Shown here piece by piece: positions 4,412-39,981 of a DNA stretch of 39,981 nt. The DNA lies in the IMG/VR virus record IMGVR_UViG_3300009285_000029. One strand, 5' to 3'. Positions within the stretch are counted from its first letter, which is position 1; every line of letters starts with the position of its first letter. Source of the DNA: a virus. The notes below the pieces were generated by a model. That model was not told the origin of the DNA and did not search any database. It was given only the letters and a program-made list of their open reading frames with translations. The translations under genes and the position numbers were made by a program.

Positions 4412-4956
4412 TCGCTTCTCTCCTGCTCGACCGCCTTGCTCGCGGCCAGGGCTTTAAGTTGCTTATGGACGGGATTGCCTTCGTTCAATCTGGCGACGTG
4501 CTCACGTACCTCCGGCAGCATGGTGAGGTTCTGCTTCTCGCGTGCTACGATCTGCTCGTAGGCTTTGCTAAAATGGGCATACAACACGCCCATGTTATCG
4601 TACTGCATGATGGTTTGCCGCCCCATTGCTTTGAGAGTGGCCTTCACCAGGGGGTGAGTCGAGGGATACCCACTGTAGGAGTTCAATTCGGCAATCGCCT
4701 GCCCCCAGGCCTCGGCGGTGGAGGGCACGTCGGGGTTCGAGATTTCGGCATACACGGAGCGGATTTCTGCGATGGTGGGCCAGGTTGCATAGGGATGACG
4801 CGCAATTGCGGTCTGCACGGCCAGGATCATGAGCTCGGGGTCGAGGTCGGCCAGGAATTTCTGGTAAACGATTATCGTACCCTTCTCGACCTGGACGTTG
4901 GGGAACGCGCCGGTGAGCAGGGCGATGGCGGCGTCTAATTCATTCGGTTTCGCCAC
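4408..4956 (-). CDS. Replication accessory protein, G39P-like helicase loader/inhibitor family (tentative)
   Basis: LLTGAFPNVQVEKGTIIVYQKFLADLDPELMILAVQTAIARHPYATWPTIAEI resembles the N-terminal domain of SPP1 G39P-like loaders. Lies directly downstream of the initiator-like gene. Confidence 0.5.
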   Translation of the reverse strand: MAKPNELDAAIALLTGAFPNVQVEKGTIIVYQKFLADLDPELMILAVQTAIARHPYATWPTIAEIRSVYAEISNPDVPSTAEAWGQAIAELNSYSGYPSTHPLVKATLKAMGRQTIMQYDNMGVLYAHFSKAYEQIVAREKQNLTMLPEVREHVARLNEGNPVHKQLKALAASKAVEQERSE

Positions 4957-5761
4957 GTTCGCGATCCTCCATGACTTCTTTCAGCAGTTGCATGTTCCGG
5001 GCGGTCTTGCTGGTGGAGCGGTTCTGTTTCGTTCCGGGCAGCTCTCGGCGCTGGTAGTAGTCAAGCATTGCGCCCACGTTGCTGCGGTTCCAGCCGGCGA
5101 GAACGTAGGCTCGAGCAACGGAATACCAGAACTCGATGTCGTTTGGTTCTTCCCCCACGATTTTGATGATTTCCTCCGCCTGGGGAGGGCTGGCGTTCCA
5201 TTTCGCCCCATCGGTGTAAGCCTGGACGGCGGGGTGGCGTGGGGCGAAGCCACCCCCCTGGTTCTTCTTCTTATTGGTTCTTCTTATTGGTTCTTCTTCC
5301 CGTCTCACTAAGTGGACTGTTTCTTGTTGCGAAACGGACTGTTTATTCACAGACTGGACTGTTTCTCCCCCTCTATTCTGTCCGCTTTTCGGACTCTTTC
5401 CATAGGACATAAATCGTTTTATCTGGTAGGTGTTGGGCTTTCCTCGTCCCCCCCCTGGAGTTATTTGAATTAGAGATAGACCGGCCAGTTTGTCCAGTGC
5501 CCTCTTGATCGTTGAGCGATTGGAATATCCGGTCTCGGCCATTATGGTTTCGTAGGAGGGAAAAGACTCGCTTTTTTCGTTGATGTGAAGGGCAATGCAG
5601 ATAAAAACGGAAAGAGAGGCATCCGATAAAAGGCTCAATGATTCTCGAAAGGTAACGTCCATTTTGATGAAAGGCGGTAATTTCTTTTCTTTTAGCTGCC
5701 CATATTCCGTGACGTATTCGGTTGTTTCCTCGCGGATGGTCAGGCCTTGTATTTGTGGCAT
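4940..5761 (-). CDS. Replication initiator/organiser-like protein with a winged-helix (HTH_36-like) domain
   Basis: SFPSYETIMAETGYSNRSTIKRALDKLAGLSLIQI is a typical HTH_36 motif. I prefer ATG 5761 (MPQIQGL, GGAG 8 nt upstream), because the ORF-track start at 5815 lies inside the loop of a terminator-like hairpin. Confidence 0.65.
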   Translation of the reverse strand: MPQIQGLTIREETTEYVTEYGQLKEKKLPPFIKMDVTFRESLSLLSDASLSVFICIALHINEKSESFPSYETIMAETGYSNRSTIKRALDKLAGLSLIQITPGGGRGKPNTYQIKRFMSYGKSPKSGQNRGGETVQSVNKQSVSQQETVHLVRREEEPIRRTNKKKNQGGGFAPRHPAVQAYTDGAKWNASPPQAEEIIKIVGEEPNDIEFWYSVARAYVLAGWNRSNVGAMLDYYQRRELPGTKQNRSTSKTARNMQLLKEVMEDRERGETE

Positions 5762-5769
5762 TGCTCGCT

Positions 5770-5850
5770 CCAACGAAAAACCCGCTTTGGTGAGGTCTCC
5801 GGTTTCCGCCGCCACCTAAATGGACGAACCGAAAACCTCACCAAAGCGGG
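5770..5850 (-). terminator. Long hairpin plus U-tract (intrinsic terminator or attenuator) upstream of the replication genes
   Basis: Perfect 16-bp inverted repeat, cccgctttggtgaggt (5781-5796) against acctcaccaaagcggg (5835-5850). In minus-strand sense the stem is followed directly by TTTTTCGTT (5780-5772). Confidence 0.6.
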
Positions 5851-5904: not shown

Positions 5905-6063
5905 CTAGGCCTTCGGCTTCCACAGCACGAGTTCGCCGTCTTGCAGGCGCACAACGTAAGCGATAACTAGCCGGACGAGCAGAACGTACCCGTAGCGTAA
6001 TCCCACAATCGTGCCCGGCCCTTCGTGGGTGAGGACATCGTGGCCGAGCATTTCATTTTCCAT
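5905..6063 (-). CDS. Hypothetical small protein (52 aa, below the ORF-track cutoff)
   Basis: Hand translation: MENEMLGHDVLTHEGPGTIVGLRYGYVLLVRLVIAYVVRLQDGELVLWKPKA*. Its start overlaps the HTH gene stop as TAATG. Confidence 0.4.
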   Translation of the reverse strand: MENEMLGHDVLTHEGPGTIVGLRYGYVLLVRLVIAYVVRLQDGELVLWKPKA

Positions 6064-6356
6064 TAGAACAGCGCTCCGCCCGGATAGAGAATCTCAAGCC
6101 CGCGGCGGCCAAAGTCGCGCTGCCAGGAACCGTCTTCATAGTAGGCCATGATGAGGGCAAAGTAATTCCGGCCTGGGATGTACTTCCCCTGTGACCACGC
6201 ATGTACGGTGGCATGAGTTATGCAGGCGTCCTCAGGCAGCCCCGAATTCAGAGAGGCCGCGAACTTGCGGAACGTTTCCTTGCGCTCGGCCATCAAGGCT
6301 TTGAGATACTCTTTGAATAGGGTTCGTTGCGCAATGGCTTTTTCGTAGGGTTTCAT
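6063..6356 (-). CDS. XRE/Cro-CI-type helix-turn-helix transcriptional regulator
   Basis: FRKFAASLNSGLPEDACITHATVHAWSQGKYIP fits the XRE HTH pattern (lA..l.....is...v..We.G...P). It is the first gene transcribed leftward from the divergent promoter region. Confidence 0.7.
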   Translation of the reverse strand: MKPYEKAIAQRTLFKEYLKALMAERKETFRKFAASLNSGLPEDACITHATVHAWSQGKYIPGRNYFALIMAYYEDGSWQRDFGRRGLEILYPGGALF

Positions 6357-6365
6357 CTCGGCACA

Positions 6366-6394
6366 AGAATATCACAAAAGAAACAGGTTGTCAA
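6366..6394 (-). promoter_or_regulatory. Leftward early promoter (near-leaderless transcript for the HTH gene)
   Basis: Minus-strand reading is TTGACA-N17-TATTCT with TGa extended -10. Only 9 nt separate the -10 from ATG 6356, and no SD is visible. Confidence 0.6.
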
Positions 6395-6405
6395 GTCACT
6401 TGACA
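6389..6405. promoter_or_regulatory. 17-bp perfect palindromic operator candidate spanning both -35 boxes
   Basis: TGTCAAGT-C-ACTTGACA read directly. Each arm contains the TTGACA -35 hexamer of one of the two divergent promoters. Confidence 0.65.
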
Positions 6406-6428
6406 GGATTGAGGAGATATGCTAGAAT
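6400..6428 (+). promoter_or_regulatory. Rightward early promoter, near consensus
   Basis: TTGACA (6400-6405), 17-nt spacer ending in TGc, then TAGAAT (6423-6428). GAGGAG RBS lies at 6452-6457 and the ATG at 6463. Confidence 0.8.
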
Positions 6429-6462
6429 TTGGCAGACATCCGCAAAATAACGAGGAGACGCG

Positions 6463-7146
6463 ATGACCGAAACCGAGAAGCAAGCCCGCGAGATTTACGA
6501 AGAATACGATGTCCCCTTCCCAAAGCCGTGGGCGGGGCTGAAATTCATCTGGCACCCCTGGCACCAACCGGCGTCTCGGCTATATTGGCCGATGCTATTC
6601 GAGGAGTTTTGCAAGCGCGCGGTTGAAATCGGCACGAAAAAACCAGAGCGTGAGCGGCTTGAACGGCTAACGCTAATGCGGCCCGCCAAGAGGCAGTTGG
6701 CTATTCCGAAATATTTCGCCAAAGCGTGGGAGGCTTACGTCAAAACGCGGGAGGCTTACGCCAAAGCGTGGGAGGCTTACGCCAAAGCGCGGGAGCCTTA
6801 CGCCAAAACGCGGGAGGCTTACGCCAAAGCGTGGGAGCCTTACGCCAAAACGCGGGAGGCTTACGCCAAAGCGTGGGAGCCTTACGCCAAAGCGCGGGAG
6901 GCTTATGACAAAGCGCGGGAGGCTTACGCCAAAGCGTGGGAGCCTTACGCCAAAACGCGGGAGGCTTACGCCAAAGCGTGGGAGGCTAACGTCAAAGCGC
7001 GGGAGGCTTATGACAAAGCGCGGGAGGCTTATGACAAAGCGTGGGAGGCTTACGTCAAAGCGCATAAGAAACAAATCCTCGCCATTCACGCCGTCGAGTG
7101 TCCTAACTGTAGGTGGGATGGCGAGAAGCTTCCGCAATTCGATTGA
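6463..7146 (+). CDS. Heptad tandem-repeat protein (16 x K[AT][WR]E[AP]Y[AVD]) with a C-terminal CxxC
   Basis: 227-aa ORF and first gene of the rightward early operon. It has a unique 85-aa N-terminus, then AKAWEAY/VKTREAY-type 7-aa units, then HAVECPNCRWDGEKLPQFD. Confidence 0.8.
   Translation: MTETEKQAREIYEEYDVPFPKPWAGLKFIWHPWHQPASRLYWPMLFEEFCKRAVEIGTKKPERERLERLTLMRPAKRQLAIPKYFAKAWEAYVKTREAYAKAWEAYAKAREPYAKTREAYAKAWEPYAKTREAYAKAWEPYAKAREAYDKAREAYAKAWEPYAKTREAYAKAWEANVKAREAYDKAREAYDKAWEAYVKAHKKQILAIHAVECPNCRWDGEKLPQFD
6718..7062 (+). repeat. 21-bp tandem repeat, about 16.4 copies (coding)
   Basis: Unit is gccaaagcgtgggaggcttac, with variants gccaaaacgcgggaggcttac, ...gagccttac and gacaaagcg.... 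Units are phased exactly every 21 nt from 6718. All six frames stay open across it, which produces the spurious ORFs in the track. Confidence 0.95.
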
Positions 7147-7156
7147 GGAGGCCTGG

Positions 7157-7459
7157 ATGAACCTAAAAGAGATTGAGATCAGAGCAAAGCATTTGGGGAA
7201 TTATTTACATGACAACAGAATGTCCGCTGCCGAAATGGTTAGCAAAGATGTCCCTGCCCTCATCGCCCAAATAAGGGGGCAAAGGAATTTGTTGAAGAAA
7301 CTGCGGAACGGCATTGGCGATCACTACCATCCCGAAGAAATAACAACTGACGAGGACAGATATATCTATGTTGAATTATCGTCGCTTCAAACATGGTGGG
7401 AAGATGCCAACGATGCCCTCGCCGATTTGGAGGATACCGATGACCCTGATACTGATTGA
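7157..7459 (+). CDS. Hypothetical acidic protein (100 aa)
   Basis: ATG 7157 (MNLKEIEIRAKH...) is preceded by GAGGAGG. The ORF-track extension back to 6905 is a repeat-frame artefact. Confidence 0.7.
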   Translation: MNLKEIEIRAKHLGNYLHDNRMSAAEMVSKDVPALIAQIRGQRNLLKKLRNGIGDHYHPEEITTDEDRYIYVELSSLQTWWEDANDALADLEDTDDPDTD

Positions 7460-7769
7460 CCCCCTCACCGGAAAAGCCGTGGAGCACGACATCGAATCCT
7501 GGGGTGCGCAGTGCCGTCTTGATCCAATCGACGAAGCTGCTGCGTTACCCGAAGGCACCGTCATATACACGACAGAGGAAGCTACCCCCTCGCTGCTCTC
7601 GGACGCGGAGTTGTTGGCGACGCTGAGGAGCGTGGAGTGGGTACAATGGGATGGCGGCGTTTACTGCCCCGGTTGTTTTGCTTATCACGGCAATGGTCAC
7701 AACGGTGGTTGCCGCTTGGCGCTCACGATTTCCGCACTGGAACGGAGGTTGGATGGACGGCTTTCCTGA
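7440..7769 (+). CDS. Hypothetical protein (109 aa) with a CxxC...H...C cluster
   Basis: ATG 7440 (MTLILIDPLTG...) is preceded by GGAGGA. Contains CPGCFAYHGNGHNGGC. Confidence 0.65.
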   Translation: MTLILIDPLTGKAVEHDIESWGAQCRLDPIDEAAALPEGTVIYTTEEATPSLLSDAELLATLRSVEWVQWDGGVYCPGCFAYHGNGHNGGCRLALTISALERRLDGRLS

Positions 7770-8061
7770 GCATCTTCTGCACCCTGACCACAAGGCGGCC
7801 AGGATAAAACGAACTCTGGTTTGCTCCAATTGCTGGGGCGAGTTGAAGGTGGAACCGTCTGATGAGCCGCACATTGACCTGATCTTCTGCTTCAATTGTG
7901 GATTGGAGACGCGCGGCTACGTGAGCCGGGAGTGGGCTCGGCAACGGAAGCTGGAGAGCGGGCTGGAAGCGGGCGAGGTCAAGCGCAATTATCCTGAATT
8001 GGCGCCGGATGATGGTGAAAAGAAAAGCGCCGAGGAGCTTATCCACGAAATCGGATTTTGA
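7753..8061 (+). CDS. Zinc-ribbon protein (102 aa)
   Basis: ATG 7753 (MDGFPEHLL...) is preceded by GGAGG. Contains CSNCWGEL...CFNCG. Confidence 0.65.
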   Translation: MDGFPEHLLHPDHKAARIKRTLVCSNCWGELKVEPSDEPHIDLIFCFNCGLETRGYVSREWARQRKLESGLEAGEVKRNYPELAPDDGEKKSAEELIHEIGF

Positions 8062-8073
8062 TTGGAGGAAGAA

Positions 8074-9183
8074 ATGTCTGGAATCGTAGGACTTACTGAC
8101 AGGGGTATGGCGTTCCCGGAGATCGGGCAGATACGCAAGGGCGAGGAGAAAACCAGGGCAGACCAACCCGGCAAGGACTTGACCTATTTCCGCGTAGTGT
8201 TTGCCGAGGCCGAGCGCGAGGCGCAGCGCGTGTTCGAGCAGCATTACGGCAGCGAACCGGCGAAGATCCAAATTTGGCTGCCGTTCCCTGACCGTGACCG
8301 CTGCTGGGAAGCGGCTTATGAGGCGTATACCGCCAGCGAGTTGAAGGCCCGCGCCGGTATCTGTCCCCTGCCCGAGGCTGACCTCACTCTGAATTATTTC
8401 GAGAAGTTGAAGGACCCGGAGACGCTGGAGGTGCTGGTCAAGGATTGGCGGGATGCGGACGGGAAGCTGCGCGTGTTTGACCCCGATGCGCCGGTGGGTC
8501 ACTACATGAACCAGAAGGGCAAACGCATTCCGCTTTACGCAACTCCGGCGGGCCGCCTAAAAGTTATTCTCCCCATTCTTGGGCGGTTGGCTTTCTTCAC
8601 GGTACACACGACCTCGATCTGGGACATCGCCGAGATTTCGGGCAACCTGGACGCCTTGCAATGGACGAACGCGCAGGTGACGGGGAATGATAGCCTGAGC
8701 CGCATCCTGATCGACCTATACCGCAAGCCGAAAAAGATTTCCGTGCCGAAGGGCAAGGGTGCGGGAGGCGAGCGCATCCGTGTGGAGAAGTGGCTGCTGC
8801 ACCTAGAGGCGAACCCGGAGTGGGTGCGCACGAAGGTTGCCGAGAGCTATGCCACCAGCTTGCCCGCCTCCCCCGCCGGCGCATTCCTGCCGGAGGGCAA
8901 CGGCTATGAGAATGGGGACGGCGAGGAGGTAATTGAAGCCGAAGTCGTTGAAGAGAACGAACCCGAGGCGGCAAAACCTGCCACAAAACCCAAGCCTGAG
9001 AAACAGGAGGCGCAAGTCAGCAACAGCGATGAGCGCGCACACAAAAACTCCTCGATGTATTGGGATTTCGTGAAGGAGAACGGGATACCCCAGAGCAAGG
9101 GGCAGGTGATGCTCGCGAAGAACAACCATGATTACACGGAGGCATATTGGGAGTTGGCCGACGAGCTTGGGATCGCCGGATGA
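8074..9183 (+). CDS. DNA-metabolism protein, possibly of the phiC31 gp3-like (RDF-like) family (tentative)
   Basis: ATG 8074 is preceded by GGAGG. The N-terminal FPEIGQIRKGEEKTRADQPGKDLTYFRVVF resembles the G.IR.G.K...P.kLd.FR opening I associate with gp3-like proteins. An acidic, Pro/Lys-rich linker (EEVIEAEVVEENEPEAAKPATKPKPEKQEA) follows, then a small C-terminal domain. Confidence 0.4.
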   Translation: MSGIVGLTDRGMAFPEIGQIRKGEEKTRADQPGKDLTYFRVVFAEAEREAQRVFEQHYGSEPAKIQIWLPFPDRDRCWEAAYEAYTASELKARAGICPLPEADLTLNYFEKLKDPETLEVLVKDWRDADGKLRVFDPDAPVGHYMNQKGKRIPLYATPAGRLKVILPILGRLAFFTVHTTSIWDIAEISGNLDALQWTNAQVTGNDSLSRILIDLYRKPKKISVPKGKGAGGERIRVEKWLLHLEANPEWVRTKVAESYATSLPASPAGAFLPEGNGYENGDGEEVIEAEVVEENEPEAAKPATKPKPEKQEAQVSNSDERAHKNSSMYWDFVKENGIPQSKGQVMLAKNNHDYTEAYWELADELGIAG

Positions 9184-12019: not shown

Positions 12020-12102
12020 TGAACTATCCTTTCCGGGCGGCTTGTTCGCCCTCTACTGCCTCTCTCTCGCGAGGGAGGCAGTCGGAGGAGGAGCAAAGGC
12101 TA
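12020..12102 (-). repeat. Intercistronic element A, copy 1 (stop codon, hairpin, conserved RBS, start codon)
   Basis: About 80 bp, near-identical to 13193..13269 (one substitution plus two short indels). Contains hairpin ctgcctctctc-tcgc-gagggaggcag at 12056-12081. Confidence 0.9.
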
Positions 12103-12384: not shown

Positions 12385-12525
12385 GGGGGGGGGGATTGGT
12401 GATCTCGACGTACACCCAGCCGTTGGCCTCGGCCTCGGCTTGCTGAGGCGCAGGTATGCCAGGGTGAGGGCGGTCACGAGTACGAGGGCAAATACGGCGG
12501 CAAGGGCGAGGGCATTGTGGGTCAT
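12373..12525 (-). CDS. Small single-TM membrane protein (50 aa) with a C10 tract in its 3' end
   Basis: Hand translation: MTHNALALAAVFALVLVTALTLAYLRLSKPRPRPTAGCTSRSPIPPPAAG*. GGAGGG lies upstream, with an ATGA overlap to the pentapeptide-repeat gene. The homopolymer at 12385-12394 encodes IPPP. Confidence 0.5.
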   Translation of the reverse strand: MTHNALALAAVFALVLVTALTLAYLRLSKPRPRPTAGCTSRSPIPPPAAG

Positions 12526-12896
12526 TTTCCCTCCTGGGGGGGCTTATACCCCTCTGGCCACGTGGTGTATTTGTTGTGGCGGGCCTCGCTCAGGTCGGCC
12601 TCGCTCAGGTCGGCCTGGCTCAGGTTGGCCCATCTCAGGTTGGCCCCGCTCAGGTTGGCCCCGCTCAGGTTGGCCCTAATGCGGGCTGGGAGGACTCCAT
12701 TGGCAATCGCCCAGCCCACATACTTTTTGAGCAGGGGATCAGCAAGTAGTTCGTGCCATTTTCCATTGGCCTCCTCCTCTGTCCCCCACAACGGGCCGAT
12801 GTCGAACCCCTTTGGGAATTTCTTCTCGAATTCATCTTTGGCCGGCGAGCAGGGGCCAAAGTTTTCCAGCGTTTTTGGGTTTATGACCTGTTTCAT
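12522..12896 (-). CDS. Pentapeptide-repeat protein (124 aa)
   Basis: C-terminal ANLSGANLSGANLRWANLSQADLSEADLSEA fits the A(D/N)LXX consensus over about 6-7 units. ATG 12896 (MKQVINPK...) is preceded by AGGAGAA. Confidence 0.8.
   Translation of the reverse strand: MKQVINPKTLENFGPCSPAKDEFEKKFPKGFDIGPLWGTEEEANGKWHELLADPLLKKYVGWAIANGVLPARIRANLSGANLSGANLRWANLSQADLSEADLSEARHNKYTTWPEGYKPPQEGK
12582..12680 (-). repeat. 15-bp tandem repeat (about 6.5 copies) encoding the pentapeptide repeats
   Basis: Plus-strand units are ggcctcgctcaggtc x2, ggcctggctcaggtt, ggcccatctcaggtt and ggccccgctcaggtt x2, followed by a degenerate unit. Confidence 0.9.
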
Positions 12897-12901
12897 TTCA
12901 G

Positions 12902-13192
12902 CTATTCTCCTATCGGCCTGGTTCTTGCCCCGCACTCGACGCAGTTGTCCTCGATCGTGAGCATGTGGGCCTCACAGACCGGACACCAGTTTTCGCCGTC
13001 TATTGGTCGCCAAAACCCCAGCGTAAAATGATAGCCCGTTCTGCTGTGTTCGGTAAAAATGTGGACTTCGGCATCATCTTCAAGGTGTGAAATCTTGGGG
13101 TAAATCTTCTCGAAGGCGTGTTCGTACCCGTGTGCTGTGACAGTTTGGGGAGGCGTATTCGTGTTGCCTTCCCTCCAGTAAAAAGTGCGCAT
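12902..13192 (-). CDS. Hypothetical zinc-ribbon protein (96 aa)
   Basis: ATG follows element A copy 2 (AAGGA RBS). Contains CPVCEAHMLTIEDNCVECG. Confidence 0.65.
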   Translation of the reverse strand: MRTFYWREGNTNTPPQTVTAHGYEHAFEKIYPKISHLEDDAEVHIFTEHSRTGYHFTLGFWRPIDGENWCPVCEAHMLTIEDNCVECGARTRPIGE

Positions 13193-14789: not shown

Positions 14790-14909
14790 ATGTTCAACCG
14801 TCGAGCACCCTTTATCAATCGCACCGGAAGCAGCATTGAAGTCAACTGTGTTCTCTTTTGCCTTGCCTGGCTGAGGGAGGGCAAAAGAAGGCTGATCGTT
14901 CAGTTCTAA
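14790..14909 (+). CDS. Possible micro-ORF (39 aa)
   Basis: AAAGGAG lies 7 nt upstream of the ATG. Translation is MFNRRAPFINRTGSSIEVNCVLFCLAWLREGKRRLIVQF*. The region also folds (cttttgcc...ggcaaaag), so it may instead be non-coding. Confidence 0.3.
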   Translation: MFNRRAPFINRTGSSIEVNCVLFCLAWLREGKRRLIVQF

Positions 14910-14923
14910 GAAAGGAGTCTAAG

Positions 14924-15388
14924 ATGGCACCAAACCCAAAACGGAGAGAAAAGATAAAGGGGATGCAGCAACAGTACAAGTCAGGGAACTTGCCTCCATT
15001 ACCACCGAATGCGCCGCCGAAAGTCAAGTCGGCATACGAGCAATTTCAAAGTGGCGGCATACCCAAGATGCCCACGTACACACCTGGGAGTCATCCTGCG
15101 CCCGGTGGTGGGAGTGGAGGGACAGCCAATCCGAGGCCGTGGAGGGGAGTAAGGAATCCGACGCAGGCTCAGCTGACAGAGTGGCTGGCTGGGTCTGGGC
15201 TAACGCAGGACCAGGCGATAGCGAGGCTGCAAGCCAATAGAAAAGAGAAAAAGAAAGACGGAGGAGGCACAGGGGGTGACACTACAGACACTACAGACAC
15301 TACAGACACTACAGACACTTCAACCACGACGAAGAAGCCGAAGAAGCCGGGTGGCAAGAGGGGGCCGACGACGTACAAGCCTATGTAA
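14924..15388 (+). CDS. Basic Lys/Pro/Gly-rich protein with a (DTT)4 repeat, small-terminase or DNA-binding candidate
   Basis: ATG 14924 (MAPNPKRREKIKG...) is preceded by AAGGAG. A possible HTH reads TQAQLTEWLAGSGLTQDQAIARL. Lies immediately upstream of the terminase region. Confidence 0.7.
   Translation: MAPNPKRREKIKGMQQQYKSGNLPPLPPNAPPKVKSAYEQFQSGGIPKMPTYTPGSHPAPGGGSGGTANPRPWRGVRNPTQAQLTEWLAGSGLTQDQAIARLQANRKEKKKDGGGTGGDTTDTTDTTDTTDTSTTTKKPKKPGGKRGPTTYKPM
15278..15322 (+). repeat. 9-bp tandem repeat gacactaca x4, plus one degenerate unit
   Basis: Read directly. Encodes DTTDTTDTTDTTDTS. Confidence 0.9.
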
Positions 15389-15390
15389 AA

Positions 15391-15609
15391 ATGGCAACCT
15401 GGGCGGACGTTCCACGAACCGAGGCAAAAGCGAAACTGCTCAGCTGCCTAAGCTGTGGAGGAGTGAAACCCGAGGAGCGATTCAAAATCTGTGAGCAATG
15501 CGGCGTCCCCATCTGTCTTGACTGCACCACCAATCCCTGCTGGTATTGCGGAGAAGAACGTCGGGGACGAAGTAGAGCGGATCAAGAAACGGGCCGGGGC
15601 AATACTTAG
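15391..15609 (+). CDS. Cys-rich double zinc-ribbon protein (72 aa)
   Basis: Four CxxC pairs: CLSCGG...CEQCG...CLDC...CWYCG. ATG lies 2 nt after the upstream stop. The 3' end overlaps the longest form of the terminase ORF in another frame. Confidence 0.55.
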   Translation: MATWADVPRTEAKAKLLSCLSCGGVKPEERFKICEQCGVPICLDCTTNPCWYCGEERRGRSRADQETGRGNT

Positions 15610-17275
15610 CTTCTTAGAGGCGAGGGAGGAGAAGGCGCAGGCAAAGGTCTGGAGGGCCGCGTTGCGCGTATTGAATGGAGAGTTGGGGGAAGTGAAGGAG
15701 GAAGAGGTCATACAGGCGTGGCAGGAGGAACTGCTGCCCGCCTTCGTTCAGTTGAACGATAACCCGATGGGGTATTCGGGGTACTACGAGTTGGTGTGGG
15801 GCGAGGAGTGGCCGGAGCACTGCTGGGATTGGGCGAACCTTTATTACGAGGCACACGAGGAGGGGATGTACTCGCTCATCGAAGCCTTTCGAGGCAGCAT
15901 CAAGTCCACGTTCAATTCATTGTTCGTCAGCTTTCGCGTGGGCCATGAACCGGCCAAAATCAACCTTATAATCTCGTCCAGCGACGACAAGGTGAAAGAG
16001 ATCGGGGAACTGATCGCCAACGTGATCAAATACAACAAGGCGTGGCAGCGCATCTTCCCTCACGTGGTGCCGGACGAACAGGGGCATTGGAGCGTGGAGG
16101 CAGGATACAGCGTCTGGGACAATCGAGTGCCTTACCCGGAGTGGACGCAAAAGACGATGGTGGAGGGAGGGCGCGCGCCCACGGTGAAGGTGGCGAGCTA
16201 CAACAGCCAGTACCTGCCGGGGCCGCACCCGACAGGCGTGCTGATGATCGACGACATCCACACCGAAAAGAACTCGGAGTCGCAGCGGGAACTGCTGAGG
16301 GTGAAAAGTGTGGTAACGAGGATCCTCGTGCCTGTGATTGAACCGGAGACCTGGTTCTTGATAAACGGAACGCCCTTCAACTTTGCTGACGTCGTGGCCT
16401 GGGCCAAGATCAACAAGAGATTCAAGAGCATGAGCACGCCGGTGAGGAAAGAGGATGGGACACCGGCGTGGCCGCAGAAGTGGAACGAGGGCGCCATCGA
16501 GAGGCAGAGGGAAACGATGAACGATGACGTGGCCTTCGCACAGATGTACGAACTCAACCTAGAAAAGGCGAAGGGGCAGGTGCTAAAAAAGGTGTGGCTC
16601 GAACCCTACTTCCCCGCGGCCGAGACCAAACCGAAGGACTGGCTCGCCTTTGGCTTTATTGACTACACCTCGACCTCGCGGCCTGATAAGCAACAGTCGG
16701 ATTACTTTTCACTCGCTATCGGATTGCTGCCGCCGAGGTCACGATTTCTCTTGCTCGTGGACGGCATCTACGCCAGGCTGGACCAGGACGACGCCCAGGA
16801 ACTGGCGGTGGCGAAGATACTGGAATACCCGAAGATGATGGTGGTGGGGGTGGAGGCGCTTTTCTCGGGGAAGGAATATCAAAACACGCTGGCCCAGAAC
16901 CAATACCTGCTTTCAGCCGGCATCGTGCCGAGGGCGTGCCGGGGAGGGCCGTGGGCGAAATCGAAGGGCTACCGCTTCGAGAAGATTTTGGCTCCACGCT
17001 TCAAGAGTGGCATGGTCAGGATCACAGACGAGGAGAACGAATATCTGAACGCCCTCAAAAGCGAATGGGTGGGCTGGCAAGGGGACGCGCTGGCCGCGCT
17101 TGGACATGACGACGCCCTCGACACGGCCTTTGGCGCGTTGTGGATGGCAATGCCCTACCTGCCCGTGGACGAGTATTCGATCAACACCGTGGCCGAGACC
17201 TTGAATTTGGAGGCGGGCGGCGGGGAGCAGAAAGTGAAACCTGATGCTATGCTTCAAGCTTATGCGAGGAAATGA
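15491..17275 (+). CDS. terL: Terminase large subunit
   Basis: Walker A-like AFRGSIKST, Walker B-like GVLMIDDIH, coupling motif INGTP, and nuclease-domain acidic motifs FGFIDYTST, VGVEA and GHDDALDTA. The start is uncertain: GTG 15491, or in-frame TTG 15662 (GGAGGG 5 nt upstream), which would avoid the overlap with 15391..15609. Confidence 0.9.
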   Translation: MSNAASPSVLTAPPIPAGIAEKNVGDEVERIKKRAGAILSFLEAREEKAQAKVWRAALRVLNGELGEVKEEEVIQAWQEELLPAFVQLNDNPMGYSGYYELVWGEEWPEHCWDWANLYYEAHEEGMYSLIEAFRGSIKSTFNSLFVSFRVGHEPAKINLIISSSDDKVKEIGELIANVIKYNKAWQRIFPHVVPDEQGHWSVEAGYSVWDNRVPYPEWTQKTMVEGGRAPTVKVASYNSQYLPGPHPTGVLMIDDIHTEKNSESQRELLRVKSVVTRILVPVIEPETWFLINGTPFNFADVVAWAKINKRFKSMSTPVRKEDGTPAWPQKWNEGAIERQRETMNDDVAFAQMYELNLEKAKGQVLKKVWLEPYFPAAETKPKDWLAFGFIDYTSTSRPDKQQSDYFSLAIGLLPPRSRFLLLVDGIYARLDQDDAQELAVAKILEYPKMMVVGVEALFSGKEYQNTLAQNQYLLSAGIVPRACRGGPWAKSKGYRFEKILAPRFKSGMVRITDEENEYLNALKSEWVGWQGDALAALGHDDALDTAFGALWMAMPYLPVDEYSINTVAETLNLEAGGGEQKVKPDAMLQAYARK

Positions 17276-20763: not shown

Positions 20764-23700
20764 ATGGTAAGCTCCTATCAGCAACAGCAGCAAAGAAAGA
20801 TAAAGGGCCTTTACGATGACACGCTTTACGGACAGCGGCTGTCTTTGTCGGGCGCAGCTGGCAGAACGTCCGAAACCCCCACGCTTTCCGCGGCCTCCAA
20901 GGCTAAACTTTCATCTGCGGTTGCCGGGACCGTCTCTCAGCCCAAACGACCTCCTCCTGGCTACGACAAGCTAACCCCGCTCGAACAATCGTTCTCTGAG
21001 ATATTTCCGGGTATTGCTCCCTGGATTTTGCGTGGGACCGGCGCGGTGGGCGGAGGGGTACTTGGCTTTGCCGTGGGAGGCCCGGTTGGGGCTGTCGTGG
21101 GAGGAGCGGCGGGCGCAACATTCATCGAGTCCATTCTGGACACGAAGGTTGGTGATTGGCTATTCAAGGGGTTGGATTACGGGGCAGAAGTTACAGAAAA
21201 AGCCATAGGGACGGCCTACCTCATCGCCAACGACGACCAGTTGGAGGCGCTGAGGGGGACACAAATGAAGGGCACAAGCTCGCTGGCCTGGCTTGACATC
21301 GCTACAGATCCAAAAAAGCGAGCACTTTTCCTTTCGGCCTGGCGAGCCTCCAGCATGTTCTACGAGAGCATCGCCCCGAAGGACGTTGGGGGATTGCTCA
21401 AAGTCAGTCAGGCGCTTGGCGGCTTCGAGCAGTTCTCCCCCTTCGCCTCGGAAGAAGAAAAAGAACAAGTCCGTATAGAGCAGCAGGAGATATGGGGTGA
21501 GTGGGACACGTATTGGGGCGAACAGAAAGAGCACTGGCGGAAGGTGTTTGCCGGTGAACCGCTGCCTGACATCGGCGGCCTGCCGCAGCTTATCGCCATG
21601 CGTGAGCAGATATTCAGCGGGCGCGACCCCGATGAGGTATTGACGGAATACCAGCAATCCCTCGGCATGCTCGCCTTCCGCGGGCAAATGTTCGACAGCC
21701 TGGGCCATATCGTCGCCGATCCCATAAACTTCATTATGCCCAAACTAAAGCCGGTCGAGAAAGGCAAGGCTCTCACCGAATACGTGCTCGCCGCCAGGAA
21801 GGCGCCGCAGGTGACGCAGGCGGTGGATGACATCAAGCGGGCCCAGAAACTCTTCCTCGCCGCCGAGGACGTGGCCGAGAAATCGCGCCTGGCCGATGAC
21901 ATGGTGAGAATTGCCGATAGCCTGGAGACAGCCACCTTCAGCAAGATCGACGAACTCTCGGACATCACCCTGGGGCTAAAGAAAGCGGTGGAGAGCGGCG
22001 AGGGCTTGGACAAAGCGATTGGCAGGCTGGACGACATCATGCGCCGCTTCGACGAGGTGAAGGACGCCTCGCTGATGGAGCGCAAGGTGGCGGCGCTGTT
22101 TGGTGGAGACCCGCTCAACCCCCCGGATTACTACTTCAAGCTCACCAATGCCACAAAGAACATTCCTCTTGGGTCCCGCCTCGTGGGCGGCGTGCTGCGC
22201 TTTTTCACTCTCACCTCCGAATCGAGAGCGCGCATTTTCGTGAACAACATCTCGGACACGCTGCGCATCATCACCGCCGAGGGCAACATTGCAGACCCCA
22301 GGACGCCGTACCTGTGGGTGCAGAATTTCGCCAAAGGCGCGGCAGGGGCATTTGGAGACAGGCTGGGGCATATGTTCATCACCCCCGTGGGCAGGCACGT
22401 GCAGGCGGTTCTCAAAGCCTCGATGACCAAATTTGCCGAGGCCCTCACCGCCTACGACGCCCTCAAGACGCAGCGGGAAATGGCTTACACCATCGCCCGC
22501 TTGCTGGACGACAGCCCCGGCAACATTGTCAAGATGCTGCAAGCGGGCGAGTCCAACGCCGTGTTCCAGAGGCTGACGAAACTGGTGGGCACGCAGCCGG
22601 GCGTGAAGCTGCTGGACGACATCGGAGCGGGGCTGGTCAAGCAGCAAGACTTGGTGAAGCTGGGCGAGATACTGCGCTCGACAAAGAACAACATCATTCC
22701 CTGGACGCCAGAACTGCTGCGCGGCAAGATGCTCTCGGACATGCTGGAAGTGGCGGCAAAACTGGCGGAGACGCAGTTTGGGGTGAAAGAGATAGGCATA
22801 TTCAGGAAAGCAACCGAGGCCATGAAGTCGGTCGAGAGCCTGCTGCTGCTGGGCTTGAACGGGCTTTACCCGGTCAACAACTTCTTCAACGGCGAACTGA
22901 CCATGATCGCCCGCGGACTGTTCAACATGATGACCACCGATCAGGCACTGAAATATTGGGATGAGGCAGTTGGCTTCCGGCCCTCCAATCTGATGAAAGG
23001 CTTCGGTATCTCTGGCGAGGAAGCCATAGCAGGGGTATCGGACATCGAAAAGGCTGCCATGAAAATCCTGGATGACGCACGCTGGGGAGATAACCAGAAG
23101 TTCCTCAAGACCGTCAGGGATGCGGCCAGGAAACCCAAGCTGGCTCGATCTATAGCGGCAATAACGGAGTCGAGGCAACGCCTGCGCGCCACCACCTCCG
23201 CACACATGAAAGTCTTTCCGCAGATCAAGAAGGGGATGATCTCGGGGATGGACGTGGCTGAACCGGGTTTGCGGGAGGCGCTGAACATCGGCGACCCCAA
23301 TCTGGCGCGGGCCTTCGAGGAGGCCGTGCAGTCCTCGCTTTCCGTGAACGACATCGGCAAACTCCGCCAGACGAAGAACCTGAACTGGAACGTGGAGAGC
23401 ATCATCCGGCAGGCGGGAGAGCAGTTGGGGATGCCGACCGAGACCCTGCGAATGTTCCTGGGCGAGGAGGTGCTGGAGGGATTGCGGCGTGTGGTGGACG
23501 ACATCAAGTTGAACCCCACCGCCGAACGCATTTCCTCCGGCATCAGCGACATGAAGCGCACCTTTCAGGATGGACTGGAGGCGGCTTACGTCAGGGAACT
23601 CGAATACCGCGCCGCCGAGTACGCGGCCAAGATCGAGACCGAAGGCATTCACGGCGTGGCGATGGTGTATGGCGAGGTGGCCGATTCCATCTTCGCCCGC

Positions 23701-26700
23701 CAGGTGGCGCACACCATGCGCCTCGACGAGCAGGTGCCGAAAATCCTGGACATCGAGAACGCGGCCCTGCGCAACAGCGCGTGGAAGGGCATCCTGGGGG
23801 ACAGCGACATCGCCTGGCGTAGAACCTGGCAATTCCAGGAAGCGGCGTTCAAGGGCATTGCCGATGGCTTGAAGGGGCGCGGGGCAAAGCTCACTCAGGA
23901 CTTCACCGACGGTTTTCGCTCGCTGAAAAAGACCACCGGCGATTTCATCACCAAGCGCAACAAACTGTGGGACGACTTCTTCGAGGACATCGTAGCCAAA
24001 AAATTCCCCGATGACTTTTCGAGGTTTGCCCGCGGGGACGAGATCCGCGAGATTTTGACGAAGGAATACCAGAACCTCATCGAGACAACCGAGCGCGCCT
24101 ACCTGAAGATGGACACGGTGGTGGTGAACAGCTTCCGTGACCCGCGCCTGCGCTCGCAGGTGAGCATGTGGCGCAGCACCATCCGGCGCATGCGCATCGC
24201 AGACATGGAGAGCATGGCCGATTTCCGCGGCGTGCTTGCGGGCGTTCCGAGAGCGGAGCAGGCGGCGATGTGGAGGGACTACAACTTCGCACGCCGCCGC
24301 GTGTGGGCCAACATCAACCTGCTCGAAAACGCGGGCCGGCGCATGGTGGCCGGAGACCCCGAGGCGCTGCGCATGTTCTCACAGGTTCAGGACTTGCCTC
24401 TGTTTCAGGCCAGGGCTGCCGAAGCCGTGGAGCAGGCCGAGAGATTGTCCCTGCGTAAGCTTGACCCCGTGCAGCAGAGCGACATCTTCCGGCAGGCCGA
24501 ACTCGGGTTTGCCGATACGCCTGTCTCCGAACTGCCGCCCGATTTGAGAACAGCCTTGCAATTCCAGATCGAAGAAATGATGAGTGATATGACCATCGCC
24601 AAGCCAGGGCGGAGGATCATGGATTACGACGTGGCTGGACGGGGTGGCTTGTCGGAGGTAAGTGGCATCTCGTCTAGCTACCCGTATTGGTACAGCGAAC
24701 TCAACCCCTACCTGCGATTGGCGGACGGGACTGTGCTGCGCGGCAAGGCCGCCGTGGAAGAGGCGCTGAACATACTCGTGCGCGGCGAGGGAGATACGGG
24801 CTACTCGATATTCGGGGAGCTGCGCAGGATCGCCTTCCGCGAACTGGCGGACGGCGGGTTGCCCGAGGATTTCTGGAAGGTGATGGACGAGATTGGTGAG
24901 GAGGGCGTTTCCCTGGTGCCGCTTTCTAGGGCGGGGGAAATGGATAACTTTGTTGATGCCATAAAACAAGCTGATATTCAGATTGCTCGTAAGGGCATTG
25001 AGAGTTTGAAGGGAGAAGAATTTCGTCGAGCCTCCGAATTACTATTAGAACATGGCTTACCGAGTGAAAATGAACGCCTCAATCAACTAATCAACAATCT
25101 TAGTGAAACTCTTGCGAAGCTCAACAAGGCTGGGGCAGACCCCCAACTACTTAAATTAGCCTCACAACAGATTTCTGATATTCGTAGCCATTTTCAAACA
25201 GTTTTGGATCGTGTTCAACGCAGAAAATTTTTGGGGAAGGCGACAGACATGGGAGCGCGCAAGCCACCCGTGCAGCCTATCAAAGACACAGAACCTTTCA
25301 TGGCCGATTTCGACAGCCTGGTGGGGCGCATCGAGGCGCGGCAGGCGGGAATAGACGAGGTGTGGTTCGAGTTCACCGCGCCGATGGTGGACGAGGTCGA
25401 GCGCCGCCTACTGGCAATGCTGGACGAGAAGCCAACCAGCATTGCAAAATTGCCCGCCGCTACACAAGCGCAGCTTGACCGCTACCTCAACCGCGCCACC
25501 GGAGAACTGCGCAACGCCCAACTCGTTTCCTCCAGGTTGTCCGAGAAGATGGCGGATGGCGTGATGCTCAACTACAGCAGGCAATACGGCTTCGACGTGG
25601 CGATGGGCTATGCCGCTCCCTTCCCCTACTGGTGGACACACTCGATTGCCTCCTGGCTGGTCAATTCGGTGGACAGACCGGCGATGCTTTCCACCTATTT
25701 CAAGATGGAAAGGTTTCTCAACGAGGTCGTGGGAGACAAAGAGAATTTCCCCAGCCGCCTGCGGGGGCGGGTAAAGATCAGCCTGCCCTTCGTACCCGAG
25801 GAATTCGGGGAAATCTGGTTGGACCCGGGGCGCATGTTCGGCCTGCCGTTTGAGCAATTCTTCGACCCCTACGTGAACCTGATGCGGGAGAACGAGAGCA
25901 TGCAGTACCGCATCGGGGTCACGCTGGGGCAGATGGTCGAGTCCGGTGCAATCACCCAGCAGCAATACGCCAACGCACTATCTGGGAATGACCCCGCGCT
26001 CTACGACCGCGCCAAAGGCATCGTACTCGACCAGGACAGCACGCAGCAATACGACGTCATGGACTTTATGAGCATGAGCACCAGCGCGCACCTGCCCTAT
26101 CAGATCGCCTGGAACATCCTCAAAGGCAGGCCGGAGCGCATTGGCCCATTGCCGTTTACGCGCACGCTAAAAGGGGTGGCCGGACTGTTGGGAATCAAGG
26201 TGGGAGCGGAGGGAGTGGACAAATGGGGCAACATGCGCGAGAGCATCGGACTGCCATACTTTGACGAGTTTGAACGTTACCGTGTGCGCCGCGAATTGTC
26301 CAACATGACCGCCGAGGGCATCATTGACTCCGACACCGCCATACGCGCCATGATCGAGGAGGAGGGCGAGTGGTATCTGTATGCGCTCGACCGCGTGAAC
26401 AAGCAGCAGGGCTTCTCCACGCTGCTGCGCATGGTGGGCTTGCCCACGCTTCCTTACCCTGAAGGTGAGAAGGCATTGAGGGCGAAGAAGGACGAGTTCG
26501 AGGCCGCCATGCGAGCCTGGGATGCGGGCAACGTGGATGCCGCCACAACCTTCTTCGATGAGAACCCGGACTACCTCACGCGGCTGGCAATCGGGAAAGA
26601 ACCCGAGGAGCAGATGCAGAGGTTCACCGTTGACCTGCTGTGGGATGCCTATAATAATCTCTCATCGGTGGACAAGAGGATTGCCCGCGAGGCCCTGGGC

Positions 26701-28232: not shown

Positions 28233-29213
28233 ATGCCATTCAGTTTGGCAGACTACGCAAAAATCCAAACTGATCCAAAGCGCAAGATGGTGATCACCAA
28301 CATGCTGCGCGAGTCCGCAATTATGGAACTCATGCAGTATGAGAACACCGACACCCTCTCCACGGTACAGGTGCGCTGGAACACGCTGCCATCGGCGGCC
28401 TTCCGCAAGCTGGGAGCCACATACACAGCGAGTGAAGGTTCGTACGACGAGGTGTGGGAAAGCCTGTATGCCCTGGGCGGCCTGATCGAAATCGACCGCG
28501 TGTACGAGAAAGTGCGCAATCCCATCGTCGATCCCCGCGTTGACCAGGTCTTGCAAAAGACCAAGAGCATCATGCTCACGTTCAACGACTACTTCATCAA
28601 CGGCGACCTGGCCGTGGATGAGGACGGGTTCGAGGGGTTGAAGAAACGCATCTCGAACATGCCCAGCCGCCAGACCGTGAGCGCCTCTGGATCAACCGAC
28701 ATCCTCGACCCGACCGCCTCGGCAGCCAACGCCCGCAAGTTCCTGGATAAGTGGGAGGAAGCGGCCTACGCCGCCAACGACAACGACTTCCAGATGATCA
28801 TCTGCAACGAGAAGATGATGTGGGGCTATGGCCGCGTGCTCCGCTACCTGGGAGCCAGTGGTGGCCCTCTGTTCGATACCGCAACGGATTTCTTCGAGCG
28901 CGAGGTGCTCACCTACAAAGGCGCGAGGATCGTGGACATCGGCCTCAAGAAAGACCAGACCACCGAGATCATCACACTGACCGAAGACCCCGGCGACGGG
29001 GGCAACGACGCCACCAGCGTCTACTTCGTCCCCGTCAATCTGGAGGACGGCGTGTTCGGAATCCAGCTTGCGGAGCCGGACATCGAGGAGGGATACAAGG
29101 ACGGCCTGGTGCTTCGGCAGATCCTCGTGGACTGGTTCGTTGGGTTGGCGACGTTCGGAAGCTATGGCCCCACTCGGCTGAAGAACATCGAAACCCCCGC
29201 CAACTGGACGTAA
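28233..29213 (+). CDS. Major capsid protein
   Basis: 326 aa with an AAGGAG RBS. The N-terminus SLADYAKIQTDPKRKMVITNMLRESAIMELMQYEN...LPSAAFRKLGATYTASEG resembles a capsid family I recall (lpf..i.g..y.re..lp.a.fr). Its position after the scaffold gene supports the call. Confidence 0.8.
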   Translation: MPFSLADYAKIQTDPKRKMVITNMLRESAIMELMQYENTDTLSTVQVRWNTLPSAAFRKLGATYTASEGSYDEVWESLYALGGLIEIDRVYEKVRNPIVDPRVDQVLQKTKSIMLTFNDYFINGDLAVDEDGFEGLKKRISNMPSRQTVSASGSTDILDPTASAANARKFLDKWEEAAYAANDNDFQMIICNEKMMWGYGRVLRYLGASGGPLFDTATDFFEREVLTYKGARIVDIGLKKDQTTEIITLTEDPGDGGNDATSVYFVPVNLEDGVFGIQLAEPDIEEGYKDGLVLRQILVDWFVGLATFGSYGPTRLKNIETPANWT

Positions 29214-39609: not shown

Positions 39610-39927
39610 ATGCCGCCGAAGCAAAACATCACGGTAAGCGAAGAGCGCCTCAACCTGGCACTCGCCACCTTTGAACTCAAAGTCACTCGTGAGATCGCGG
39701 CTTCGGAGGATCGCACCCGCACCCGCATCGAGGAGGTAAAGACAGCAATCGCAGGCAACCCCGAAATGATCGCTGGGATGAGGGCCAGGATTGCGGACAA
39801 CACAGAAGACATCGAGGCTTTGCAGGCGAGCGATAAACGCTGGACGACGATTGCGATCTTGGCCTCGAGCGTGATCTCCGGCGTGATCTCCGGCATTTCG
39901 GCTTTGTGGGGGGGGCAGAACAAGTAG
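39610..39927 (+). CDS. C-terminally anchored membrane protein of the lysis cassette (holin/antiholin-like or other lysis accessory)
   Basis: ATG 39610 lies 3 nt after the endolysin stop, with GAGGA 10 nt upstream. It has a soluble helical N-terminus, then WTTIAILASSVISGVISGISALWGG. The G8 run and the stop lie inside the terminal repeat. Confidence 0.6.
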   Translation: MPPKQNITVSEERLNLALATFELKVTREIAASEDRTRTRIEEVKTAIAGNPEMIAGMRARIADNTEDIEALQASDKRWTTIAILASSVISGVISGISALWGGQNK

Positions 39928-39981
39928 AACTTTCGGCCTTATTTGGTGTTTATCTAGCAAGGCAATCCACTACTCTTTCGG
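39905..39981. repeat. Terminal direct repeat copy 2, an exact duplicate of 1..77
   Basis: Read directly; see the feature at 1..77. Confidence 0.97.

Follow-up and report, generated by a model that had tools for sequence, protein, structure and literature searches.

Several described systems either set a long helical hairpin on a compact domain or build a helical rod out of repeats. DksA/TraR and GreA/GreB are small proteins in which a long antiparallel hairpin projects from a compact part, and in DksA/TraR this part carries Cys/His metal ligands. The receptor-binding hairpin of colicins E3 and E9 (Alacoil-type) is long and antiparallel with small core residues, Lpp/OprI have Ala-rich heptads with Ala at core positions, and in streptococcal M proteins, tail-fibre heptad arrays, and tape-measure proteins the in-frame gain or loss of recombinogenic DNA repeats alters a helical rod. 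Here we analyze a repeat-built gene in the viral genome record IMGVR_UViG_3300009285_000029, whose 39,981 nucleotides we refer to as the window. Taken as a whole, we believe that the gene probably encodes a member of a family of head-and-stalk proteins, that its 21-bp repeats encode a hairpin inserted into the head, and that the protein may be an early accessory factor directed at the host. We hold the structural and evolutionary parts of this explanation with good confidence; the functional part is tentative.

The repeat gene and its product

The gene encodes 227 amino acids (its coordinates in Table 1 include the stop codon) and contains the dominant tandem array of the window, which Tandem Repeats Finder places at 6717-7063 with a period of 21, 16.5 copies, 87% matches, 0 indels, and a score of 519. 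The array is in phase with the codons and spells 16 heptads of the form K[AT][WR]E[AP][YN][AVD]. When up to 3 mismatches were allowed, the 21-mer consensus matched 16 sites, all of them within the array, and in 100 shuffles it matched 0. By type, the units run a b c d b e b e f g e b h f f a.

With an open reading frame (ORF), a GAGGAG resembling a ribosome-binding site, and 16 codon-phased units, the gene proposed in the initial annotation is genuine, and its phased 21-bp repeat is borne out by Tandem Repeats Finder. Two details had to be corrected. Pro had been reported in five units, while we count four (units 4, 6, 8, and 11), and the Tyr that was said to recur every seven residues is present in 15 of the 16 units, with Asn in its place in unit 13. 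The Trp/Pro-rich N-terminus (4 Trp and 9 Pro in residues 1-86) and the CPNC near the C-terminus (C213-C216) are both there as described. An antisense ORF (6673..7137, minus strand) and the two other plus-strand frames that run through the repeat were rejected as by-products of the repeat, since the conserved head described below exists in frame 1 only.

A large family with a split head

Among 5.8 billion proteins, a full-length search identified 144 relatives of the window protein. A profile of the N-terminal domains alone, containing no repeats, was searched against 1.84 billion representatives and matched 1,961 clusters (50% identity) at E <= 1e-3, 883 of them at E <= 1e-10. The family hidden Markov model (HMM) matches the window protein with E = 7.6e-63, and the profile of N-domains alone matches P0002, a relative 85% identical to the window protein, with E = 1.8e-9. 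The N-terminal domain, which the initial annotation called unique, is therefore a divergent copy of a domain found in about 2,000 protein clusters.

Family members share one plan: an N-terminal module, then heptads of the KAWEAYD type in variable number, and I..LH...CPxCPWDGKTIF at the C-terminus. The N-module reads [WF]HxHH-D-x-L-x-E ... ER..YIK..KP..E..LRL.L, and the C-terminal knuckle reads LH-x3-[CH]-P-x-C-x-W-x-G ... F, where (in window numbering) P214 and C216 are invariant and L208, H209, W218, and G220 are at least 90% conserved. All three hallmarks of the proposed family (N-module, C-motif, and KAxEAYx array) are found in the window protein. Its N-module has W30-H31-P-W-H34, in which one His of [WF]HxHH is replaced by Trp, followed by a four-residue insertion, R52, K60-P61, E64, and R68-L69, and its C-motif is I208-H209-AVE-C213-P-N-C216-R-W218-D-G220 ... 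F226. The HxxxCxxC that this contains (H209-x3-C213-x2-C216) is the commonest form among the complete members that we classified. Family proteins are 90-260 amino acids long, with no signal peptide or transmembrane segment evident in the sequence (no predictor was run).

None of the curated libraries that we searched contains this head. Pfam, NCBIfam, and PHROGs had no family for it when queried with the protein, its relatives, and the N-domain alone, and PADLOC, queried with full-length proteins only, had no defence or anti-defence model for it. A PDB sequence search with a profile and with a heptad-less core found only consensus-TPR designs and noise. Foldseek searches with both of our structure models against the PDB, and with the window model against BFVD, gave nothing at E <= 1e-3, the top matches being generic long helices (colicin R-domain, F-BAR, tape measure). 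At the DNA level there was no blastn match in 50,697 GenBank phage records, and in tblastn against GenBank phages the window protein found tail-fibre heptads only and a low-repeat member found nothing. A literature search by peptide strings and by topic gave nothing relevant on the family.

The library matches that do occur touch only the repeat (alanine zipper, tail fibre, consensus-TPR, and JetC/LmuB coiled coils), and they bear on the automatic annotations, according to which this would be a TPR protein or a structural protein of the virion such as a tail fibre. The window protein matches phrog_24159, "tail fiber protein", with E = 2e-13, tblastn aligns it to Klebsiella phage tail fibres at 44-48% identity, JGI labels some relatives "TPR repeat protein", and consensus-TPR designs are the top PDB sequence matches. 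However, these matches are confined to the repeat, phrog_24159 covering only residues 85-204 and the PDB matches covering only AW..AY..KA composition. The fibres themselves are proteins of 800-1,400 amino acids with non-aromatic heptads (AKTSETN/AKASEVA), a TPR unit is 34 residues long whereas the period here is exactly 7, and the gene sits in a non-structural operon, with relatives among replication and nucleotide-metabolism genes. We find this identity barely credible. The head-and-stalk proteins are a large and previously undescribed family in uncultivated phages and a few bacteria.

The array as a predicted hairpin inserted in the head

AlphaFold2 was run on the window protein with the family alignment and gave a mean predicted local distance difference test score (pLDDT) of 91.8 and a predicted template modelling score (pTM) of 0.75. 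The model has an additional helix at the N-terminus, strands at residues 27-30 and 41-44, helices 46-59 and 62-71, and then a helix 83-136, a break at 137-140 (AWEP, in the central unit 8), and a helix 141-212. W30-H31-P-W-H34 is on the strands, and the KP..E..RL motif of the family lies with helices 46-59 and 62-71. All five AlphaFold models (mean pLDDT 86-92) contain the hairpin. Together with three results from sequence comparison, they indicate that the array is a long antiparallel two-helix hairpin whose C-terminal arm returns onto the N-module.

The first of these results comes from members without heptads. In P0141, P0261, and P0188, the N-module is followed by a few residues and then directly by the last helix and the knuckle, so the array is an insertion into a compact domain and its two ends must meet. 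P0141 and P0261 also carry an N-terminal pentapeptide-repeat extension fused to the heptad-less head. The second is the position of irregularities. Among 192 long-linker proteins we found 28 register shifts or loops in the arrays (for example NNRGKRGKF, HHGINLVNYP, and KKRQGRFPKKYPKS), 25 of which are at relative positions 0.4-0.7 and none in the outer 30% on the N-side; detecting one requires two units on each side, and a hand estimate that allows for this bias gives a binomial p of ~1e-5 for the central clustering. The third result is suggestive only, as it consists of few events in related sequences: every C-motif of the form FPxC, which has lost the first Cys, is paired with an N-motif that has gained a Cys (HC.HH and similar), and P0107 and P0179, which have no N-motif His, also have no C-motif Cys.

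Based on this evidence, a head that is one compact domain of ~75 residues, with an N-terminal strand-strand-helix-helix and a C-terminal helix and knuckle, is well supported. The conserved His and Cys residues of the head most likely share one metal (Zn) site.

Some observations count against this structure. The proximity of the His/Cys ligands is inferred. The four Pro residues of the window array are at a nominal core position, where they would kink the helices; across the family, Pro makes up 1% of residues at this position (heptad position 5). Most importantly, the AlphaFold model of P0018, which has 6 heptads, is one continuous helix (residues 55-105, pLDDT 93.4, pTM 0.59), and for this reason an extended, oligomerising rod stays the main structural rival. 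In such a rod each chain would form one long helix with the N-module and the C-knuckle at opposite ends, and chains would assemble either as a parallel, Lpp-like alanine-zipper trimer or as an antiparallel dimer, the latter with metal sites formed in trans. Ala at both core positions, as in trimeric Lpp, fits this arrangement, and there are weak matches to Lpp/OprI models, which are below the curated cut-offs (PF11839, 16.5 bits versus 23.1; NF040598, 11.8 versus 43). The heptad-less members, however, place the N-module beside the knuckle, irregularities and explicit loops fall at array centers, the window protein was modelled as a hairpin five times out of five, and a parallel trimer cannot account for the correlated His/Cys changes. 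We therefore consider the rod unlikely and continue with the hairpin.

The heptad and the evolution of the stalk

Across 1,218 units of the family, the seven positions of the heptad are K (87%), A (88%), W/R/G (33/30/12%), E (70%), A (87%), Y (67%), and D/V/N/A (39/12/7/6%). Positions 1, 2, and 5 have entropies of 0.8-0.9 bits, compared with 2.8-3.2 bits for positions 3 and 7. The two Ala of each heptad are spaced 3 and 4 apart, and standard coiled-coil geometry would make them the core positions a and d, flanked by Lys1 and Tyr6 at g and e, with the variable positions 3 and 7 exposed at b and f. Ala at both core positions resembles close-packed Alacoil or alanine-zipper coiled coils. Other lineages in the family have different units, such as KKWDEAY, QRDKLNA, and EAGRVYD. 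One locus (L019:5872-6525) encodes a stalk of about 12 copies of an 11-residue unit, AVERPAWEQYE, a hendecad on the same head framework. Both periods, 7 and 11, are those of coiled coils, so what is conserved is a helical stalk and not one particular peptide.

The initial annotation had preferred a solenoid to a coiled coil. Given the predicted hairpin helices, the periods of 7 and 11, and the a/d spacing of Ala, the array is a coiled coil and not a solenoid; the ladder of aromatic and charged residues that was also proposed describes the flanking and outer heptad positions fairly.

Most codon differences between the units of an array are non-synonymous. In the window array, 34% of codon pairs compared between units differ non-synonymously and 3.8% synonymously, and several family arrays have zero synonymous differences between units. 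The near-absence of synonymous differences fits recent amplification of a few unit variants. At the other extreme, arrays whose units are only 55-70% identical as DNA retain the peptide pattern, which speaks for selection on the protein and against a role at the DNA level. Such a role, in which the repeats would act as iterons or an origin, or as a protein-binding array phased at two helical turns, with the ORF incidental, has some attractions: 21 bp is two turns of B-DNA, a gene for an initiator-like HTH_36 protein is 650 bp away, and the units are near-identical as DNA. Yet the same architecture recurs in thousands of unrelated genomes with other codons and units, the pattern survives unit DNA identities down to 0.55, the consensus search finds the unit nowhere else in the window, strains tolerate 6-16 copies, and a heptad period is enough to explain 21 bp. 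We regard a DNA function as extremely unlikely.

A rather more serious possibility, though still one we doubt, is that the stalk is neutral, that is, that slippage-prone 21-bp repeats inflate a tolerant surface hairpin whose length is meaningless, and the head alone is functional. The stalk does vary in length between near-identical strains and between orthologues, its amplification appears recent, and members without heptads exist. On the other hand, more than 95% of family members keep the array, the helical period and the K/A/E/A/Y pattern persist where unit DNA identity has fallen to 55-70%, independent lineages have evolved different units that are still compatible with a coiled coil, and phage contigs keep two to four paralogues with different stalks (four in L024, three each in L040 and L052).

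Array-length alleles in one phage lineage

The longest exact repeat within the array is 71 bp (copies at 6809 and 6914), and every k-mer of at least 77 nt in the array is unique. Ordinary reads of 150 nt can therefore resolve the array, which is not an assembly artefact. Gene calls on 20 contigs, from JGI and ENA assemblies, yield the identical 227-residue product, and over 2.8 kb the only one of these contigs that was fetched, L057, matches the window with 100% identity.

At 90% identity, the cluster of the window protein contains four further sequences of 213, 178, 178, and 157 amino acids. All five are length alleles with identical protein sequence outside the array, and they have 16 units (abcdbebefgebhffa, the window), 14 units (abcdbefgebhffa), 9 units (abcdbeffa), again 9 units in a second form, 9' (abcdbhffa), and 6 units (abhffa). 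A single deletion between identical unit types is enough to derive each of the shorter alleles, either of 42 bp between the two be pairs or of 105 bp between f and f or b and b, and the two copies of the 71-bp repeat likewise start 105 bp apart. The copy-number variation that the initial annotation had predicted from the DNA repeats is thus found within a single phage lineage.

Linked variants elsewhere in the genome indicate that the alleles are different strains and not collapsed copies of one array. The 14- and 9-unit alleles, which come from other samples, share a 24-bp indel and a cluster of single-nucleotide polymorphisms (SNPs) at 8946-8998, a further SNP, at 12074, is present in the 9-unit alleles, and another, at 5404, is specific to the 6-unit allele. 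The variants at 8946-8998 are in the acidic, low-complexity C-terminal part of a Gp3-like protein (gene 8062..9183), where L001, L058, and L059 have in common an in-frame deletion of 24 bp and, after it, a cluster of 9 substitutions within 30 bp; the remainder of the 5-10 kb compared is almost identical to the window in all three. In P0002, whose flanks are ~85% identical, there are about 3 units. Three orthologues in metagenome-assembled genomes (MAGs) of Yanofskybacteria have near-identical heads and lengths of 202, 146, and 142 amino acids, and across the family the number of heptads per protein is 0-22.

The 21-bp repeats encode an insertion in the head domain that probably folds as an antiparallel two-helix hairpin, in the window protein with about 54 residues per arm and a predicted length of roughly 80 Å. 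Recombination or slippage between identical units may then add or remove whole heptads and leave the head undisturbed. Given that the units are near-identical as DNA, such gain and loss of heptads would produce both the length alleles within a lineage and the range of unit numbers across the family.

At about 9 loci, the family gene is cut by a contig end. Among IMG/VR contigs of at least 20 kb (L022-L056), the gene is within 6 kb of an end in 23/31, where 9.1 would be expected (Kolmogorov-Smirnov p ~1e-7), and in five of these contigs the end cuts the gene. This excess could be due to assembly breaks near repeats or to a true position near the terminus.

Genome context

The first and last 77 bp of the window are identical (1-77 and 39905-39981), which points to a circular assembly, so the window is probably a complete phage genome of ~39.9 kb. 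It is the genome of a tailed phage, in which 15491..17275 encodes a large terminase and 28233..29213 a major head protein. Features at the repeat gene are listed in Table 1. As the initial annotation had it, the repeat gene is the first one behind the strongest promoter-like site, the top consensus match of the whole window. It opens a rightward, non-structural block that extends from 6463 to ~11080 and includes the Gp3-like protein (PF18897). The opposing promoter match is a putative start for the 97-residue gene at 6063..6356, which has no family match in Pfam or PHROGs, and for the rest of a leftward operon, in which the HTH_36 protein, which resembles a replication initiator, is encoded at 4940..5815. 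The palindrome between the two promoter-like sites looks like a single operator shared by both. An Rfam scan around the repeat gene found nothing.

Table 1. Features in and around the repeat gene of the window.
Feature	Position	Strand	Details
Sigma-70-like promoter match, leftward, TTGACA-17-TATTCT	6366..6394	-	10/12, TG before -10
Palindrome TGTCAAGTcACTTGACA, perfect 8+1+8, candidate operator	6389..6405	.	Spans both divergent -35 hexamers
Sigma-70-like promoter match, rightward, TTGACA-17-TAGAAT	6400..6428	+	11/12, extended -10 TG
Shine-Dalgarno-like GAGGAG	6452..6457	+	6-11 nt 5' of ATG, read from sequence
Head-and-stalk protein gene, 227 aa	6463..7146	+	ORF; family HMM E = 7.6e-63
N-terminal head half, residues 1-86	6463..6720	+	Alignment and AlphaFold
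16 phased 21-bp units, residues 87-198	6721..7056	+	Tandem Repeats Finder, unit typing
Predicted hairpin turn, residues 137-140 (AWEP), Pro140 of unit 8	6871..6882	+	AlphaFold break
C-terminal head half, residues 199-227, helix KAHKKQILAIH and then knuckle	7057..7143	+	Conserved residues

Other parts of the window deserve mention. On the 3' side of the repeat gene are two small Cys-rich ORFs (7440..7769 and 7753..8061, plus strand), one of which has CSNCWGE...CFNCG, with only weak matches, Lar-like and zinc-ribbon. There is a second repeat-built gene at 12522..12935 (minus strand), which encodes a 137-residue protein with A[ND]LS[GQE] pentapeptide repeats, the pentapeptides being encoded by a phased 15-bp tandem repeat at 12582-12676 (6.3 copies, 91% matches); in L058, a called gene overlapping its counterpart carries PF00805. 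A perfect 9-bp tandem repeat, GACACTACA, is present at 15278-15319 (4.7 copies, 100% matches) in the ORF 14858..15388, directly 5' of the large terminase gene. After the head-module genes is an ORF of 2,242 residues (20764..27492, plus strand) without a Pfam match at E <= 1e-3, and the ORF preceding it ends in a Gly-rich repeat (20631-20696).

What the protein may do

The isoelectric point (pI) of the window protein is 9.3, as is that of its array. In the family as a whole, proteins range from 5.6 to 9.5 with a median of 7.7, and the N-domains have a median of 9.2. The initial annotation had invoked T7 Ocr as a precedent for a first-expressed gene. A DNA mimic of the Ocr type requires a strongly acidic surface, and the window protein, being basic, is ruled out as one. 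Targeted mutagenesis by a diversity-generating retroelement was also rejected, as the variable sites are not adenine-specific and no template repeat was seen.

Family genes are found in phage-like contigs among small early-type, replication, and nucleotide-metabolism genes, with neighbors that include DnaB/primase, DNA polymerase B, YqaJ, methyltransferases, and a 7-deazaguanine gene set. The last of these is seen in L003 (4601-11860) and L004, where the family gene lies within a set of QueC-like, PTPS (QueD-like), radical-SAM, and GTP cyclohydrolase I genes, a 7-deazaguanine-type DNA-modification module 5' of a family-B DNA polymerase. At least one lineage sits in the chromosome of bacteria of the Candidate Phyla Radiation (CPR): on a 166-kb Yanofskybacteria contig, the gene is located between beta-oxidation enzymes, a SLT-domain protein, and MnmA. 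A second MAG shows the same arrangement.

As the first product of a strongly promoted, rightward, non-structural operon, the window protein would act early, as an accessory factor directed at the host. We suggest, with low confidence, that the conserved basic head docks on a conserved cellular partner, which may be nucleic acid or nucleic-acid machinery. The stalk, with an exposed stripe of Trp/Arg, Glu, and Asp/Val and a Tyr ladder, could then be a fast-evolving surface for interaction or self-association, or a steric arm. A role in host takeover or anti-defence, as put forward in the initial annotation, is unproven.

Several points tell against this functional proposal. The early timing is assumed from gene order only. 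Clustering of the neighborhoods of 57 loci found no neighbor family common to unrelated phages, from which it appears that the protein works without a dedicated phage-encoded partner. The chromosomal CPR members weaken the case for a purely anti-host role, no match in the annotated libraries gives a function, and while diversifying selection would fit the variability at b and f, so would relaxed constraint at the surface.

A more specific and rather speculative version, which we consider improbable, is that the protein is a probe of adjustable length. A Zn-clamped head would anchor it to a conserved cellular target, and the hairpin, with a Tyr/Trp ladder of ~10.5 Å pitch, would read or block a periodic polymer such as nucleic acid, a cytoskeletal or pilus filament, or a glycan strand. 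Recombination of the repeats would tune the length of the stalk and its b/f residues in an arms race between phage and host, which, if true, would account both for the presence of several paralogues in one phage and for the length alleles at the strain level.

The remaining alternative is that the protein redirects host transcription, either as a secondary-channel factor of RNA polymerase of the DksA/Gre type or as an anti-sigma factor of the ZAS type. As leads, a globular metal-binding part with an antiparallel coiled-coil hairpin recalls DksA/TraR and the H-x3-C-x2-C spacing is that of the ZAS motif, and a place behind a strong promoter would suit a transcription factor. Nevertheless, the DksA/TraR family (PF01258) has no match at E <= 1 in the window protein or at E <= 10 in its relatives, zf-dskA_traR and zf-HC2 are unmatched even at E <= 10, and the ZAS family (PF13490) gave no Pfam match either. 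The proteins have no CxxC-x17-CxxC and no conserved acidic tip, the tip being inside a uniform repeat; stalks of 0-22 heptads are incompatible with a channel of fixed depth; and the predicted head, with its two strands and two helices (strand-strand-helix-helix), is not a four-helix anti-sigma domain. We think this reading very unlikely, and of the functions discussed we prefer that of an early accessory factor directed at the host.

Significance and comparison with known systems

A family with about 2,000 clusters in environmental phages and CPR-associated genomes is in none of the curated libraries that we searched. The window gene offers a clear natural case of an inserted coiled-coil hairpin that changes by whole heptads on the timescale of strains, and the family as a whole provides a natural series in which to study the effect of coiled-coil length on function. 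The array can be used as a strain marker, and it also calls for caution with short-read phage assemblies, as several contigs break inside the gene. The protein is also a candidate for an early accessory factor in uncultivated phages, of a size that makes synthesis and testing feasible. Should the stalk prove to be a tunable binding surface, the family would represent a new type of scaffold beside ankyrin, TPR, and pentapeptide repeats.

Overall, the head-and-stalk protein is a variation on known themes and not a new kind of system. It shares with DksA/TraR and GreA/GreB a small size and a predicted long antiparallel hairpin projecting from a compact part, and with DksA/TraR candidate Cys/His ligands in that part. 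However, there is no sequence match to these factors, the family has no conserved tip motif, the stalks of DksA/TraR and GreA/GreB are of fixed length whereas that of the family is hypervariable and made of near-identical tandem units, and the C4 ligands of DksA contrast with an N-terminal HxHH and a C-terminal HxxxCxxC. The likeness to the ZAS motif extends to an identical LH-x3-C-x2-C spacing and a further upstream His/Cys ligand candidate, but the Pfam model is unmatched, the predicted fold is not that of a four-helix anti-sigma domain, and no sigma-factor gene is nearby. The colicin E3/E9 hairpins resemble the stalk in their small core residues and long antiparallel form, and they are the best structural matches of the model: Foldseek aligns 1ujw_B with a TM-score of 0.72 on the target and a root-mean-square deviation of 3.0 Å over 111 columns, although the E-values (at least 0.03) are not significant; unlike the stalk they are not tandem arrays, they have a specific receptor-binding tip, and there is no homology in the head. 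Lpp/OprI share the Ala-rich heptads with Ala at core positions, but Lpp is a parallel trimer without terminal domains, and the family protein has no evident signal peptide or lipobox. Finally, in-frame gain and loss of recombinogenic repeats is a property that the stalk has in common with streptococcal M proteins, tail-fibre heptad arrays, and tape-measure proteins, which are large surface or virion proteins, whereas the product described here is a small protein with a conserved split head, encoded among non-structural genes.

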